Origin: Balanoglossus misakiensis
Lineage: Eukaryota; Animalia; Hemichordata
Direction: 5' to 3'
NCBI GenBank assembly: GCA_040954595.2
Contig: CM082584.2
Coordinates: forward strand, 9,877,061-9,941,060
DNA length: 64,000 bases
Part shown: positions 1 through 52,015 of the stretch, one piece after another
How the letters are laid out: each line of letters opens with the position of its first letter
Numbering within the stretch: the first letter of the stretch is position 1
The notes under the pieces: generated by a model
What the model was told of the DNA's origin: nothing
Databases searched by the model: none
What the model saw: only the letters and a program-made list of their open reading frames with translations
Made by a program: the position numbers and the translations under genes

Positions 1-1546
1 CGCAGCGTTGAATGTTACTCGGGGAGTACTGTAACCCCAAACGAGGGTCTCGGGAACCCAACCCAACCCATCAAGCATCGCCGATGATTGGACAGACCTC
101 GACGCGCTGAGAAGTAACCTTGATTGGTTTGCTGCTCGCTCGCTTGACATTGCCTGGAAACAAGACGGATGTGGTAAATGCGCACGCGCTGACTATAGTG
201 CAGCGCTCGGCGAGAGTATTGCCCGGTTCTGGTTCCCAGCAAGAGGACAGGTGTTTAAAAGGTAAATCGGACAATATTGCGCAGTTTCATTTAGTCGAAT
301 GGGATTTATGAGGTTGTCAAGGCAATGTTTTGTGAGGTACACAAACACGCGTTTTAGTTTCAAGGGTTCTCCTGATCAGTATCTATCTCCGTTTGATGAT
401 GTCAGATTTTAAGGTTGTAGTTCCTCATTTGATGCCTAGAAGAGTACCTACGCCCAACCGCAGTGTGTTGTAGAGTCTACCATGACAATTGTACTGGTCA
501 AAAAACATTACATGTGAAAGTACTTTAAAACTTCTCACGTAAAGTGGCGACAGCGAACAGTCGTGGAACTTCATGCAGCAGTATCGAGGCAGGAGCCCGT
601 CCAGATTTACAGCGCGATCAGGGAAACACCGTGACCATTATGGTCGATAGTGTTTTTTTTTATCAAACCTTTGACTGCAGAAGGTCTTGAAAACTAAGGG
701 CAACCTTCAATATGCTAATAAGGCTCGTAGACCAGTTTCAACTTTTGCCTTGACTTCGGGTCGCAGTCGTCTCAAATGGGTGCCAGCCACAGTAGCAAGT
801 TTACTGGGGGCTCGCTTTTCTTCACCTCATGTGACCAATTTAGTTTTATTTTCGGATTGACGAGGATTAGACGAACGGCATGCGTGTTAAACGGTTTGGC
901 TGTGGCCGGTGGACAATTAGTAGCGCTCTCAAAGGTCGGGGCCCCGCCTAGTTGGTTTTACTGCTGGTTCTCGAATGAGGCGCGTATAGGTTATTGCCAC
1001 AAGGAACAATGTTTCGAATCATTTGTTTCATGATGTATAATGGTTGATCCCATTTACCGGAAAAAAAACGCACGAAGACCGTTGTTATCTGCAGTAATAA
1101 GTAAACTAGCTAACGTTTTGGCAGAATATATCTTCCATTCGGGACAGGTCGTGCATCACTTGTGGCAGATTGACACCTTCTGGTATAAAAGCCCTTAATA
1201 AACTGGATACATAGAAATATAATTATGCCCTACTCTTCACGTCGCTCGGAAACGTATCATGCATAGGCATGTACTAGCTTCAAACTAATCCTATCGGCTA
1301 TTATGTTGAGGCGTATTAATGTTGGTGTACTAAAGTTAAGATGGTCTAACCGCTCTGTATATATATACACTTTGTGAGTTGAATGTATTTTCCATCATTT
1401 TTCGTGTACGCCTGATATCGGCTTTATTCACATTTACTGTCTGTCTCTCCATCTCTCTCGCCCTCTGTTTCTGTCTCTCTCCTCCCTCCCTCTCACCCCC
1501 CTCCCTCTTCTCTCGCATAAACAAGTAGCATAGCTGCACCTTCAAA

Positions 1547-3376
1547 ATGGCCGATCCAAACTCGGGAAGATCACTGGAACAAGTCATTGATGAGAAAATC
1601 CTTCTTTGCCCAATCTGTAAGGAGCGGATGACGAAACCTAAAATTCTCCCGTGTGTTCACACCTTTTGTGAGAAATGTCTTGACACGTGGGTCAGAGAGA
1701 AAGGAGGAAGGCTTCACTGTCCGACGTGCCGGAGTTTGAGTCTAGTGCCACTGACAGGGGTGAGGGGTCTCAACAATAATCATTACATCAATGATCTCAT
1801 CGAAGTCTTTCAAAATCTGCAGCCAAAGTCCGACGAACAAGCGTGTGATATCTGCGGCAGTAAAGCTGTTTGCTGGTGTACAGAATGTGCCCAATTCTTC
1901 TGCAGTATTTGCCGACTCTCTCACAGAAAGACACGAGCGACAAAGATTCATCGATTGATGTCCACTGAAGACTATAACAACATGGCGAATTCTGGCCTGT
2001 ATCACGTGATTCGTCCCCGATTCTGCGCAGACCACGAGGCCAGCCAGTTGAAACTTTTCTGCGAACACTGCCAGGTCACGATTTGCATGGAGTGCGCAGT
2101 GACCGCCCACAAGGGCACGGCGCACAGCCTGCTGTCCTTGGAGAACGCGTCGAAGAAGTACGGTCCCGAGCTGCGGGGAAAGGTGGATGAGTTGTCGAAC
2201 AAAATGACTTCCCTCCGGGAGAAGAAACGAAGGTCAGAGGGAATCATCGAGTGCTTCGAGAAAAACCAACGCAAGGTGAAGCAGCACATAAGGGAGAAGG
2301 TCGCAAAAGTTATCAGACGAGTGAAAGACGACGAGCGAACATTGTTGGAGACGGTGTCTGCGATTGGCGGACGGAGAATAAAGGAACTGCGAGCAGAGAT
2401 CGAAAAGATCGAATGTGACATAGCATGCGCAGAAAACATGAACGACTACGCGCAGTGTCTGTTGCAACACGGCAACGCAGCGGATATACTTTCCCAGAAG
2501 AAAGAAATGGAGGCGAGATTGAACGAAGTTGTGAATTCATCAGCGTCTGGTCGACACGAATCTCATCCAATCAGCTGTTGTCTTGTCTTTCAAGAGAGCC
2601 AACCACAGTTCCCCATCGGAGAAGTTATTGACCAATCAGGAACGCCAGAAGCCGACGCACACGTGAACGCAATGCTGCAAGAACTTGAAAGATCTGAGTC
2701 GACAAGTCCCGGAGTTAGGATTGGCAATATGCCAAAGGGCACCATGGACGTTGACGAAACCTGGAAGATTCGCATAACGTATAAATTTACAGATGGAATA
2801 CAAGGGGTAAGGGTGACGAAACTTTATCCGAATCTTTGAATTTTAGACCTCAGGCCGCGACTCGGACGCGATGCGAAGGCCCCGTCAAACAATAAATGAC
2901 GATTTGTAGTCTTCTACTTTATGTAAATACTTACATATCGTTATCCCCGATTCAGCTTAATTAATAATTTTTCCAAATCATATCATCATGGTTGCAGCCC
3001 GAACATCCCAACCCCGGGCAACCGTACAAAGGCCGTGTGTTCGAGGGATTGTTACCGAAGACAGAAGAGGGTCGCGACATTGTCCGACGGTTGGGGATTG
3101 CGTTTGATCGCCGAATGACTTTCACCATCGACGAGAAGACAAACACGGTAGACTGGAATGGCATAACACACGCTGACCTGTAAGTTTTTTTCCACATCGC
3201 TAAATGAATGCCTAAATTCCAATCACGTTTTTTTTTTATGTTCAAAACTTGGACAGTGTTTCTTACCGAAGTTGATTAAAAGACCCCATTTCCTATACTT
3301 TCTCAGGTCTGATTGCTACCAGATTTCTTACATGACAAAGGTGAAGGAGGAGTTAGCCGAAAAGGGTGTGTGGTAA
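1547..3376 (+). CDS. TRIM-family E3 ubiquitin ligase (RING-Bbox1-Bbox2-coiled coil) with C-terminal Deltex C-terminal (DTC)-like domain; 3 coding exons, about 503 aa
   Basis: Exons 1547-2806, 2998-3179, 3307-3376 (GT-AG introns, phases 0 and 2, frame continuous, TAA at 3374-3376). C3HC4 RING CPICKERMTKPKILPCVHTFCEKC...CPTCR; B-box1 CDIC...CTECAQFFCSICRLSH...H; B-box2 CADH...FCEHCQVTICMECAVTAH...H; charged helical region. C-terminus GNMPKGTM...ITYKFTDGIQG|PEHPNPGQPY...LPKTEEG...AFDRRMTFTI...WNGITH...YMTKVKEELAEKGVW follows Deltex C-terminal motifs. Confidence 0.9.
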
Positions 3377-4196
3377 ATGCTAGTTATGAACAGAAAACAT
3401 ATGATCGTTTGGTTCATTCAACAACTATTCTGAATTTTAGAAAGATTATTTTTCGTTTCTCTGCTTGCACTCAAGACAACGGTTCAAACCCGCTTCGTTA
3501 ACGACCAGTGTTCGAGTTCTTCGGCATGGAATCTTTAAACCACCTCCCTTTTCAGGGCTGTCGTAATGTTAAAATGATGATCTTTTGTAATTTTTCATAC
3601 TTAGATAAAGAATAGCTTTACATGTAATTTTTATCTCCACTGTCATACGGGCCAATAAGCCCATTAATAAGCCCCCAATACGTGTACGCATGCGCTAGCA
3701 GTGGTCCATTTGTTATCGTACGGATCAGTGGTCGGTAATAGCCGCCGATATACAAGGTAATGTTCAACACTGTCAAAACATTTAACTTCCTTAGCAAGGA
3801 CTCGCACTGATCAGCTATGTGCGACACGAACTGATTCAGCAACTAGTAACATAACATGTCCGCGGGATTTTTGTGGCAAAAAATCGTTTTGGACTCCTTG
3901 TGGTAGGCCAGATGTTAGTGGACTCATCTGCACTCTGCTGCCAAGCTAACCTTTGCCAACACTTGCTAATCTATTGCACGTAATCGACAGGCATCTAGGC
4001 GGCACGTTCGGAAAGCACTGGTCACCAATAATTCATAATCCAAAGTGACAAGCTTTATTACCTCATGAAATTTATGTAGTCACAATGACTTGTATACTTG
4101 TGCCACTCAGTGCATACACAAAAACATACCCCCTTATACATTCTGAATATATGATATGAAACTCCTCACAGAAGAGGTGTCCGATCTACTATTTAA

Positions 4197-4901
4197 ATGG
4201 CAAAGTCGACAGAGACCCAACAGAACCAAACAGGCAACTATCACACGCCTTCTGCAAAGCCATCATCAATCGAGAACGTTGAATTCGGGAACATGCCAGA
4301 AGGTGTCATGGGTGCCAAGGCGTCTGGTCTCCAGATTTTCGTGACTTACATCTTTGGAGACGGGACACAAGGGGTAAGATGCTGCTGTATGTCTTGAACA
4401 CTTTGTTCCTTGAAGTCGGGTGGAATCGAAGTGGAAATATTGCGGTTTTACGGCAGTTATACATTCTTCTCTCGCGCGTGTGAACACAAAAACACAGTCA
4501 CACTTTCTCGTTCGTCTTGTTATTCGTGTTGTTCCAGGCCGAACATCCGAACCCCGGGCAGCCGTACCAAGGCGGTCGGTTCAAGGGATGGCTGCCGAAC
4601 AACGACGAAGGCAACGAAATCGCCCGACGGTTGAGGATTGCATTCGATCGACGGCTGACTTTCACCATCGATGGGAAGACAAACAAAGTAGCCTGGAATG
4701 GCATAACACACGCCGAAGAGTTGTAAGCCTGACCTTTATTTTTGTAAACACGGTAATACAACTATACTCTGCTAATGTTGTGTACTTGATAGTTAAATTA
4801 AAACTTTTCATTTTTGCAGGTTTCAGCTCTTTGAAGGTGATTTTATCCAACTTTACATGAAACAAGTCAAAGAAGAACTGTCAGCAAAAGGAGTGGTGTA
4901 G
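4197..4901 (+). CDS. Stand-alone Deltex C-terminal (DTC)-like domain protein, 3 exons, about 147 aa; paralog of the TRIM C-terminus
   Basis: Exons 4197-4373, 4538-4722, 4820-4901 (phases 0 and 2, same as the TRIM gene); in-frame TAA at 4194-4196 just before the ATG. Translation ...GNMPEGVM...VTYIFGDGTQG|AEHPNPGQPYQG...WLPNNDEG...AFDRRLTFTIDGKTNKVAWNGITHAEEL|FQLFEGDFIQLYMKQVKEELSAKGVV*. Confidence 0.8.
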
Positions 4902-5141
4902 ACATCCAAAATTGGTCTTGCGTGTTAGTGTCAGAAGCACTGTACAGAAAAAATATCTAGTATGCGACCTTTAATTCGGTTATATCATTAATGCAACTGA
5001 AATTACAGTTTTGATCAACTTCTTTCATGTTAGTTTTTCTTTATATGTTTAAAAATCTTAGAAAATCGCGACTACGTCACCTCCATAACTATAACTATAG
5101 TCTATCTATATTTTATGTATAGTTTCAAAGTGCTGATGAGG

Positions 5142-8100
5142 TCAGACACTGATGATAAAAACAATGGCTGTGATTACTGAATACCACAATGCGTAGTTGG
5201 AATGGGTTCTTTGCGCTGCGCCTGTTTAGGGAGAGAAAATAGCGAATGAAGATTTAAAACCGAAGCGATTCCAGTTGTCGTTACCGAAAGAAAAAAAAGA
5301 ATACGCTATAAGCTTAGTGGTAGAGTAGATGCAGTTGGTAGAATGGTGTCGATTAAAAATCCGAGTCGTTATTTGGTGGAACACCAATTTTCGTAATGTT
5401 GGGAAATACGCCATCACACTAATTACAATTACTTGGCGAAAATAAGTGGGCACTTACCCACGGGACAGTTTGTTCCAGTGTCATTTCCCAGCTCAATTAA
5501 CATGTTAGTTGCCGCCGTCGTCGTCCTTGCCAGAAATAACAGATTATCTTCAGTTATCATCACTTCGCGGCTGTCGCAGGCCTCGTGGTAACACGTTGTC
5601 ATTGGATGGCGAAAATTGGCTTAGAAGTGAAAGAAAAAATGGATGCCGAAGAATGAGAGCTACTCAAACCCTGTATCATATATGTGCTTGACAATGATCG
5701 ATAAATGTAATTCACGCTCTATGTACTATCCAACAACTCACCGGTGTCTGTTATGAACAGGGCAGGCAGATATGGAGGCCCGCTCTTCCAAAACCGGGCG
5801 TGGTCACTTCTGAAGAAATTTCCCAACATGGCTTCGTGTTCAGGTGCTGGAACACCTATGGAAATGAGAGGTATTTTCGTTGATATTTCCTTGATTCTCT
5901 GTCTGTCTGTCTGTCCATGTCTGTTTGTCCGTCCGCCCGTCCATCTGACGTCTGTTTGCCAGTCTATTTCTCTGTACATCGCCGTGGATATGCACAAGAA
6001 CTCTCGCTTGGTACGAGGCCAGCTTTTGATCAAAATATCATATCTCGTTACTTACTCCATGAGATTTGCATACAGTCCGACTCTTCAATAACTTTAAGCA
6101 ACTCACCTTCGAAAGGCAGTTCGAAGACTTCGGTGTACATGCCCGGCACTTCCACCTCCGACAGGTGTGACGTAAATTTCGCCGAAAAGTCCGCATCGGT
6201 CTCTCTACCTATGACGGTGATAAAGTCACCCGGAAAGCCACGTGACTCCATGTGCTGATAAACATCTTGAGGAAGCTATGCAAAAGATAGATACCGACTA
6301 TTTGTAACCTTGTCTGATGGTCAATGCAGTCCACAATCCACATTCTGTCGTACATTTCCGCCATTTCAAATGAACGATTGAAAAACACGAGTACATTGTC
6401 CGGTTCACAACACGTAACATTATGACTACATCTGTGCTCTTGGTATGCTAAACAACTCAGTCACATCAACCAATTATACAAGCTTCATAGAATGCACCTG
6501 GTGAATGACACAGTTCGATTGGATAGTTGTCAATCAGCGCATCTGTCAGATGGTCAGTGAGGTGCCACGTTTACATCATCATTCACCGAGAACTCAAATT
6601 TTGACAAACAAAAATCGTGTCCGAAAGTAGTGACGAGAACGACCTATTCATTATCCAGAGCAATTTCCGACAAGCAAGTGAACGCGAAGGGCGTAGCTTT
6701 CACGATATGGACTGGATTTTCCAAGATTTTGGTAGCCTCATTGAAGAGAATGTACATAAACCATCGGTCATGGAAAGTGTCCTGCCGAAAATCAAGGGTG
6801 CCTTTCTCCTGGCCTGCAGCCGCCATTGCGCACATCCTCTACTGTAAGTACCATTTTTTCTGTCATTTTGTCTCGGAACTTGTACATTTATAGTCGTGTT
6901 ATTATATTGATTAGGATTTTTTTCGAATTTTGTAACTCGGCAAGTTACCCCAAGAAAATTCTGCTACGTCGAAAAAATTACCGAAACTTTCGGGTGAAAC
7001 CGCGTGCGAGGTGAAATGAAACCCTAGTATAGCGTCGAGCTAAGGGCAGTCACCTGGAAGCATTTTTCTTGCCGGAAAACGGCGGCATTTCTTCGTATTA
7101 CTCGGGTACATTGCAATATCTGGATATGGCACACTGCACCAGTGCAATATCTCAGCGGACGAAATAATGCAATAGCACATCAGATAATATCCCATGAGAA
7201 CAAATAGAGTCAGTGATGTAACTGTGCATAATTATCTCCAGTGCAATATTCAACTCACCAGAAACACCTCCTGGGGAAACTCCTGCGAGCTGTTTGTGTT
7301 GTTATAGTTTAGAATGGTCTCCATGATTAGAGCTCCTTGAAACTGACTTCTGGCAGTTTGACTGATGTTCAGAAACGGTTCTAGCCACTCATTCACAAAG
7401 TGCTTGCTGCCGACGCTGATGTCATCGGGGACTATAAGTGATTAAAAATTGAATTGGTCAGAGAGCTGAAGGATCTTCAAATGATGGTGTTGGTTGTGAT
7501 GATGATGGAATTTCACACAGCAACTTCAAATTAAAGTCAGCTAACATGATAACGAATTAACGAGTAAAAACAAAACTTTTACCAGTTTGATACTCTTCCA
7601 AGTCAAACGCAACAAACATTACGGTGTTCACAGGTTCGCAGAGCCCTTTTGTTACCATGACAGCGGCTTCCAAGAGAAGCGCTACGCCTGATCCGTTGTC
7701 ATCAACGCCAGGAGTCGTTGCCGTTGTGTCGTAGTGCGCCCCCAAGAGTACAACATTGTCCTGGGGGGTTCCGACGAATTTTCCCTCCAGAACACCGACG
7801 ATATTGACCCCCTCATACTGTTGGATAAATCATGCAAATAACATGAAACATTTGGTCCTTGGTGTTCTCGTCTGCTGCGAGATAAGCGGTGATAGCAAAA
7901 CGAGACTTCAATAGGGGAAACTTCCTCTCTCATTCTCACAATGGAAAAGAGAAGTAGACAAGTAAAAAACAAACTTGAGTCTGTATTCGACAAATCGTTA
8001 CCTCGTCGTTTGTACCCGAGAATTCCTGGAGCTCGACCTTTAGGTGGCAGCCTTCCAGGGATTCCTTGATATAATTCCTGACGTTGTCTTTGTTGAATTC

Positions 8101-51585: not shown

Positions 51586-52015
51586 TACAGCCGAAATTAT
51601 GAAAGGTCGCCGATTCAATATGTGATCTAGACGTCCTGTGTGCACTGAACACACGATGTGTTTATCTAACACAAACAACAGAACCTCTCATAAATGAGAT
51701 GCGGTATCATTAGACTAATTACAGATGGTAGTCTGGAAACACGCTCCCCCTCAGAGAGAGTTGTTTACTTGTAACACGGATGTCAAAGTTTAATCTCAAA
51801 GTGTATACGCTTTATGTTGAGAGTGTACCCAAGTAAACAACTCTCTCTGAGGGGGAGCGTGTTTCCAGACTACCATCTGTAATTAGTCTAATGATACCGC
51901 ATCTCTTTTATGAGAGGTTCTGTTGTTTGTGTTAGATAAACACATCGTGTGTTCAGTGCACACAGGACGTCTAGATCACATATTGAATCGGCGACCTTTC
52001 ATAATTTCGGCTGTA
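51586..52015. mobile_element. 430-bp foldback / MITE: 186-bp inverted arms, 58-bp spacer
   Basis: Arms 51586-51771 and 51830-52015 are reverse complements with one mismatch by eye. Termini TACAG...CTGTA resemble Tc1/mariner TA-flanked ends. Confidence 0.8.

Follow-up and report, generated by a model that had tools for sequence, protein, structure and literature searches.

The C-terminal domain defines the classes of TRIM proteins, and an adjacent RING-DTC module (DTC, Deltex C-terminal domain) defines Deltex proteins; the family described here crosses both classifications, likely several times. In the TRIMCyp fusions, cyclophilin A was captured repeatedly and independently behind the RING-B-box-coiled-coil part (RBCC) of TRIM5. 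The described TRIM C-termini are SPRY, NHL, filamin, FN3, PHD-bromo, MATH, ARF and others, the substrate domains of human TRIMs begin 170–220 aa from B-box2, and encoding of the RBCC in one exon is common (PMC2533329); TRIM2, TRIM3, TRIM56 and TRIM45 represent the TRIM subfamily C type (PMC3503706). Deltex chemistry requires RING and DTC joined by a short linker (PMC7615817). In DTX2, ADP-ribose is contacted by Arg535, Ser567, Ser568, Trp578, His582 and His594 (PMC7442474), and the catalytic residues are His582 and Glu608 (PMC7615817); a triple mutant at Ser568, His582 and His594, designed to abolish ADP-ribose binding, blocks ubiquitylation of PARylated substrates (PMC7442474), and the DTX3L substitution H707A abolishes DNA ubiquitylation (PMC11460948). 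In two TRIM surveys (PMC3503706 and PMC2533329), the word Deltex does not occur, nor does the DTC figure in the list of TRIM C-terminal domains in the latter; the word TRIM does not occur in bioRxiv 10.64898/2026.04.23.720386. We found no description of a TRIM-DTC fusion in the open-access literature, as judged by titles and the opening lines of abstracts.

The window analyzed here is a 64-kb stretch of the genome of the acorn worm Balanoglossus misakiensis, and contains, on the plus strand like all features given below, a gene (hereafter gene 1) that is predicted to join a TRIM module to a DTC. Coding exon 1 (1547..2806, aa 1–420) encompasses the RING, both B-boxes, the coiled coil, a linker and the initial ~30 residues of the DTC. 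The C3HC4 RING (aa 21–61, followed by the linchpin Arg62; 1607..1732) scores 39.7 bits against the Pfam zf-C3HC4 cut-off of 21. It is followed by B-box1 (aa 100–136; 1844..1954), where a B-box1-type match of 25.3 bits falls slightly below the cut-off of 27 and the Cys/His ligands are invariant across the 57 TRIMs compared, and by B-box2 (aa 157–198; 2015..2140), which matches zf-B_box in two stretches with 44.2 bits (cut-off 24.1). The predicted coiled coil (2138..2545) comes from the AlphaFold model of exon 1, with TRIM-coiled-coil-like helices at 198–308 and 311–333; the corresponding PML_CC match (18.1 bits) is below its cut-off. This arrangement of an N-terminal C3HC4 RING, B-box type 1 before type 2 and a coiled coil after B-box2 is that of TRIM/RBCC proteins, and because the zinc ligands of this RING (RING1) and the linchpin residue, as defined in PMC7615817, are present, we infer that RING1 has E3 ligase activity. 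By every feature examined in sequence and model, the predicted protein is a TRIM, resembling subfamily C in domain order and near-usual spacing, in the closest solved structures of the relative P0005 (TRIM2, TRIM3, TRIM28 and TRIM56) and in the automatic name of its relatives, TRIM56-like. It differs from that subfamily in its C-terminal domain: after the coiled coil, Pfam detects only a DTC, which is outside the set of described TRIM classes C-I to C-XI.

The N-terminal part of the DTC, from GNMP-GTM to GIQG (2720..2806), has about 10–14 residues deleted relative to canonical DTCs, and the domain as a whole has shrunk through deletions to 112 aa vs 134. Exon 2 alone matches the DTC family PF18102 with 48.5 bits (cut-off 25, E 1.2e-12), and its PDB sequence matches at E < 1e-6 are DTX2, DTX1 and DTX3L only. 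Of the profile matches predicted in the earlier note, those to RING, B-box2 and DTC exceed their cut-offs and B-box1 falls just short. The fold was predicted for the nearest relative, P0001, the DTC of which is 52% identical to that of gene 1 and stands proxy for it, with canonical DTCs in the alignment. The resulting model (pLDDT 89) matches DTX3L (3PG6) with Z 16.9, rmsd 1.5 over 113 residues and TM 0.86, the next unrelated chain reaching only Z 5.1; judged by this closest relative, the DTC fold is kept in gene 1, in agreement with the structural match that had been expected. A scan of the linker before the DTC revealed no second RING (RING2), the nearest RING being about 326 aa away. The DTC starts 198 aa beyond B-box2, within the 170–220 aa range, and so occupies the usual TRIM substrate-domain slot, which fits the earlier proposal of a DTC serving as a TRIM C-terminus some 330 aa from the RING.

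Joining 1547–2806, 2998–3179 and 3307–3376 yields a predicted coding sequence of 1512 nt and 503 aa, with a single terminal stop and the domain order RING-Bbox1-Bbox2-coiled-coil-DTC, as the earlier note had read it across two canonical introns. Both predicted introns are of the GT-AG type, intron 1 (2807..2997; GTAAGG..TTGCAG) in phase 0 and intron 2 (3180..3306; GTAAGT..TCTCAG) in phase 2; exon 2 (2998..3179) carries the DTC core, and exon 3 (3307..3376) a shortened adenine loop without His594/GYPD, the last helix and the stop. Retention of intron 1 would end translation at 2837–2839, with a 430-aa product. Splicing of gene 1 into one open reading frame is inferred, with indirect support from a tandem copy that has the same intron sites and phases (see below) and from isoform boundaries in relatives. 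The intron-1 boundary is common to acorn-worm paralogues and one amphioxus model: the Ptychodera isoforms P0028 and P0284 diverge exactly after GIQG, that is, at this boundary, where the read-through end of Saccoglossus P0018 also lies, and the isoforms P0004 and P0017 part within the intron-2 loop. Just 5' of the ATG, a long polypyrimidine tract with AG sites (1436..1533) is likely the acceptor of a 5' UTR intron, with a possible donor GT at 262. Because the initial DTC residues are encoded in exon 1, intron 1 interrupts the DTC instead of marking the fusion seam. The suggestion that an intronless TRIM was fused onto Deltex 3' exons is thus not upheld: the seam is inside exon 1, the whole RING-DTC tail appears from the relatives to have been captured and RING2 lost later, and given that RBCCs often occupy one exon (PMC2533329), the single large exon carries no special meaning.

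With DTX2 numbered as chain position + 387, which puts Trp578, His582, His594 and Glu608 on the correct letters, only Trp578 and Glu608 of the seven pocket and catalytic residues are kept in gene 1, as Trp473 (3154) and, in the last helix, Glu496 (3350). Arg535 is replaced by Phe435 (3040) and the catalytic His582, the first His of IHHKT, by Thr477 (3166); five residues are deleted from the loop at Ser567/568 in exon 2, and the His594/GYPD loop is reduced to ADLSDCY in exon 3. From the ADP-ribose pocket set of Arg535, Ser567, Ser568, Trp578 and His594, gene 1 retains Trp578 only. A compensated frameshift concealing YPD in exon 3 was considered and ruled out, P0001 having DCY in the identical frame. 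The pattern V.WN.I.H given in the earlier note masks the replacement of the catalytic His by Thr and the absence of GYPD. Among 107 non-TRIM DTCs, a background that leans toward intact pockets because most were retrieved with an intact RING-DTC as the query (the best 120 of 1013 hits), Arg535 is kept in 102, Ser567 in 105, Trp578 in 106 and His582 in 104, with an aromatic residue or His at 594 in 102 and each GYPD position kept in 102–105.

Compared with Deltex proteins of the DTX3L/DTX3 type (PDB 3PG6, 6Y22, 6Y3J, 6Y5N), gene 1 is similar in the DTC profile, the fold of its relative, the two retained residues and the C-terminal position of the domain. It differs in the loss of His582, Arg535, the Ser567/568 loop and His594/GYPD, in the lack of a DTC-adjacent RING and hence of the short RING-DTC linker, and at the N-terminus, where it has an RBCC instead of WWE, RRM or KH-like domains. 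With neither the adjacent RING nor the catalytic His, the protein, as read from its predicted sequence, is not a Deltex.

The earlier note suggested a possible connection of the gene to sensing of ADP-ribose or nucleic acids, a link that for gene 1 is left unsupported by a largely dismantled pocket; a pseudo-DTC is the likelier reading of the domain, ahead of an ADP-ribose sensor. Because most of the ADP-ribose-binding residues are lost, a protein-binding role is likely, and the function we favor, with a confidence that we put at about even, is that of a TRIM E3 in which a fold-retaining, pocket-depleted DTC acts as the substrate module, binding proteins for lysine ubiquitylation. By TRIM biology, the coiled coil would dimerise the protein, the surface of the pseudo-DTC and its now variable loop would bind a partner, and RING1 with its linchpin Arg62 would activate E2~Ub, resulting in ordinary lysine ubiquitylation of the target. 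The loop in question, located after the second His, is fixed in canonical DTCs and unalignable among the six pseudo-DTC relatives compared, a variability that also fits relaxed constraint. Our leading guess for the partner is a protein by which pathogens attack the Deltex/PARP axis, or else a macrodomain or PARP partner. In mammalian DTX3L, a patch on the DTC surface, at a predicted PARP9 contact, is reported to be under positive selection (bioRxiv 10.64898/2026.04.23.720386); a role in binding proteins, or as bait, is plausible in this light. As in TRIMCyp (TRIM5-cyclophilin A; one case in PMC2533329), a cellular domain has been captured behind an RBCC, but the cyclophilin pocket is kept and has a known viral ligand, whereas the pocket of gene 1 is lost.

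We regard as quite unlikely a reader role free of ester chemistry, in which the DTC would still recognize ADP-ribose or single-stranded nucleic acid and bring substrates of this kind to the TRIM RING. The DTC fold is kept, as are Trp578 and Glu608, and with the second His also retained and Tyr596 probably so, the domain may bind nucleotides weakly; furthermore, the C-termini in the same acorn-worm TRIM clade include Tpt1 (P0003), WWE-PARP (P0023) and intact RING-DTC, which ties this clade to NAD+/ADP-ribose biology. However, five of the seven pocket residues are changed or deleted, among them all three positions of the DTX2 Ser568/His582/His594 mutant (PMC7442474).

The pseudo-DTC reading extends to a tandem second copy of 148 aa (4197..4901; exons 4197–4373, 4538–4722 and 4820–4901), which scores 57.1 bits against the DTC profile, has its introns at the same sites and in the same phases as gene 1 and carries the same Phe and Thr substitutions. 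A stop codon lies immediately 5' of its ATG, and the copy could be either a stand-alone small gene or a set of alternative 3' exons; because its exon-2 acceptor, like that of gene 1, is in phase 0, either of the two DTC ends could be joined to exon 1. The signal AATAAA is absent from 3371–5600, with only ATTAAA found, at 4797 and 5352, a weak hint that gene 1 and the second copy form one transcription unit. A candidate decayed RING before the second DTC (CPIY..HAFC, 4160–4279; E 0.8) was rejected as no better than chance peptides.

Alignment of the introns between the two copies does not exceed that of shuffled sequences (z −0.5 and 0.4), as against z 23 for exon 2; with the introns thus diverged to chance level, open frames and four canonical splice pairs are nevertheless preserved in both copies. 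The dN/dS between the copies is 0.35 on exon 2 (bootstrap 0.14–0.92) and 0.25 on 87 gap-free codons, which, for a comparison of two copies with an upper bound of 0.92, indicates purifying selection on the DTC exons. That upper bound would also suit a reading that we consider doubtful, namely, that the protein is a TRIM56-like ligase acting via its RBCC, the DTC being in decay or the main transcript retaining intron 1 and stopping at 2839. The stepwise deletions in the DTC and its long branches in the DTC tree point the same way, as do the Saccoglossus proteins P0002 and P0018, which end in DTC stubs, and P0003, which has Tpt1 instead; but the open frames and splice sites preserved in both copies, and the persistence of full-length decayed DTCs across three acorn-worm genera, argue against a mere vestige.

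The neighboring DTC-only copy, decayed and apparently maintained under selection, would have a role of its own if the protein were a pseudo-enzyme regulator that, through coiled-coil pairing with active RBCC-RING2-DTC paralogues or competition for their partners, tunes ADP-ribose ubiquitylation, with the 148-aa copy as a free competitor. Indeed, a single RBCC clade contains both intact and decayed paralogues that coexist in Ptychodera and in Glandiceps. TRIM coiled coils, however, pair mostly with themselves or with close paralogues, and the RBCC of gene 1 is just 36% identical to that of the intact paralogue P0019. We rate such regulation as improbable.

Relatives with the same architecture were collected by a profile search, where 18 proteins among the best 150 of 25,610 hits have a full or partial DTC, by a search seeded with an intact RING-DTC, from which the best 120 of 1013 hits were taken, and by Pfam checks; a region search with P0004 445–600 yielded 2 proteins only. 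Unnamed gene models running from RBCC to DTC are present in the acorn worms Ptychodera (XP_070563511, XP_070563512, XP_070540329), Glandiceps (XP_077982039, XP_077992667) and Saccoglossus (partial models) and, beyond acorn worms, in Branchiostoma (XP_078684009, XP_078668871), Haliotis (XP_048249660), Saccostrea, Potamilus, Dendronephthya (XP_028398988), Montipora, Porites and two Megalops species (P0179, P0182). Every one of these models is a prediction, and read-through of neighboring genes may account for some of them; in some, macro or filamin domains are interposed. Among the matches listed, the nearest relatives of gene 1 are all acorn-worm proteins, the nearest being XP_070563511 (58% over the RBCC), which also lacks RING2 and the pocket. 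The linchpin Arg62 is common to the decayed branch and is Lys in seven intact-type acorn-worm paralogues.

These models share the fusion with gene 1, but most keep RING2 and half (13/26) keep His582. The 26 non-redundant fusions, a set that leaves out five presumed isoforms, two partial DTCs and the second window copy, comprise 13 with RING2 and His582, 7 with RING2 but not His582, 6 with neither and none with His582 alone. His582 is thus kept in 0/6 of the fusions without RING2 vs 13/20 with it (Fisher p 0.015, a value that overstates the link because the six RING2-less cases come from about three lineages), and we treat this co-loss as a pattern, not a statistical test.

The TRIM-DTC fusion is a real TRIM variant that apparently has not been described and has likely arisen more than once. 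The claim of an unrecognized TRIM class stands insofar as we found no published description, but the fusion is more widespread than was assumed, reaching corals, molluscs, amphioxus and tarpon. All its parts are known domains, and the proteins are already in databases under automatic names.

Haliotis P0076 and P0202 and Porites P0280 are RBCC-macrodomain-RING-DTC gene models, and P0076 and P0280 retain the catalytic residues, combining a TRIM, an ADP-ribose reader and a Deltex module in a single chain. The vertebrate models, Megalops P0179 and P0182, join a teleost RBCC with one B-box to the RING-DTC of DTX3L in two tarpon species and could be a read-through model of adjacent genes.

In the DTC tree (57 rows, 27 TRIM-linked and 30 of 107 others), the two window copies are sisters (99/82), beside P0001 and Saccoglossus P0035, and six decayed acorn-worm DTCs form a weak group (92/53) with a common loop deletion and Arg535 replaced by Phe or Leu; the pseudo-DTC group is unresolved in the IQ-TREE RBCC tree and has a support of 98 in FastTree. 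Fusions from outside acorn worms are placed elsewhere in both the DTC and RBCC trees, and in the DTC tree, those of tarpon group with tarpon DTX3L (87/88), those of corals with coral macro-Deltex (100/97) and amphioxus P0029 with amphioxus macro-Deltex (100/99). Monophyly of the TRIM-linked DTCs is rejected by an AU test (p 2e-7), and the simplest reading is that TRIM and Deltex likely fused repeatedly and independently; reversal or paralogue conversion could contribute to the signal in the DTC tree. For the RBCC tree, the AU result (p 8e-56) is no proof of independent origins because C-terminal swaps inside clades break the group anyway.

In the RBCC trees, gene 1 falls inside an acorn-worm clade (99) with intact RING2-DTC, decayed, Tpt1, WWE-PARP, NHL and OGFr_N forms. 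In P0017, a decayed DTC follows a weakened RING2-like motif (35 bits vs 58 for P0284), which suggests that pocket decay preceded the loss of RING2. In the origin that we propose, an acorn-worm TRIM would have acquired its tail, RING and DTC together, from a DTX3L-like gene, and the resulting RBCC-RING2-DTC form persists in sister paralogues; in the gene 1 branch, the pocket residues would have decayed first and RING2 would have been deleted afterwards, so that the DTC came to lie at the distance usual for substrate domains of TRIMs.

For TRIM-scaffolded ubiquitylation of ADP-ribose or nucleic acids, the direct candidates are the intact members with two RINGs, which also offer a better test of the sensing idea than gene 1. 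The decayed members, gene 1 among them, provide a natural series in which to study the role of a DTC that has lost its pocket and whether the chemistry depends on the adjacent RING. A far-reaching version of this scheme, which we consider speculative and rather unlikely as a whole, starts from TRIM-Deltex hybrids built repeatedly by animals. In it, the proteins with two RINGs would act as oligomeric TRIM scaffolds on which ADP-ribose or nucleic acids are ubiquitylated, a class of TRIM not known from mammals; one acorn-worm branch would be the first natural pseudo-DTC, a hypervariable-loop decoy that traps pathogen proteins antagonizing the Deltex/PARP axis and passes them to the TRIM RING, and exon 1 could be spliced to either decoy end.

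The same acorn-worm RBCC clade swaps its C-termini among RING-DTC, a Tpt1/KptA 2'-phosphotransferase (P0003), WWE-PARP (P0023), NHL and a fragment of OGFr_N, which we take to be an NAD+/ADP-ribose-linked module (P0024, P0025 and P0021 are further members of the clade). Several of these C-termini are NAD+ or ADP-ribose modules, and the TRIM-Tpt1 and TRIM-PARP forms merit separate attention.

Elsewhere in the window, the 22 other long ORFs match no Pfam family above cut-off. Positions 6371–32044 are occupied by a tandem segmental duplication (unit about 12.5–12.8 kb, 95–97% identity, matching microsatellites), the long ORFs of which likewise match no Pfam family above cut-off, and a palindrome of about 430 bp with 91% self-identity, possibly a MITE, lies at 51586–52015.
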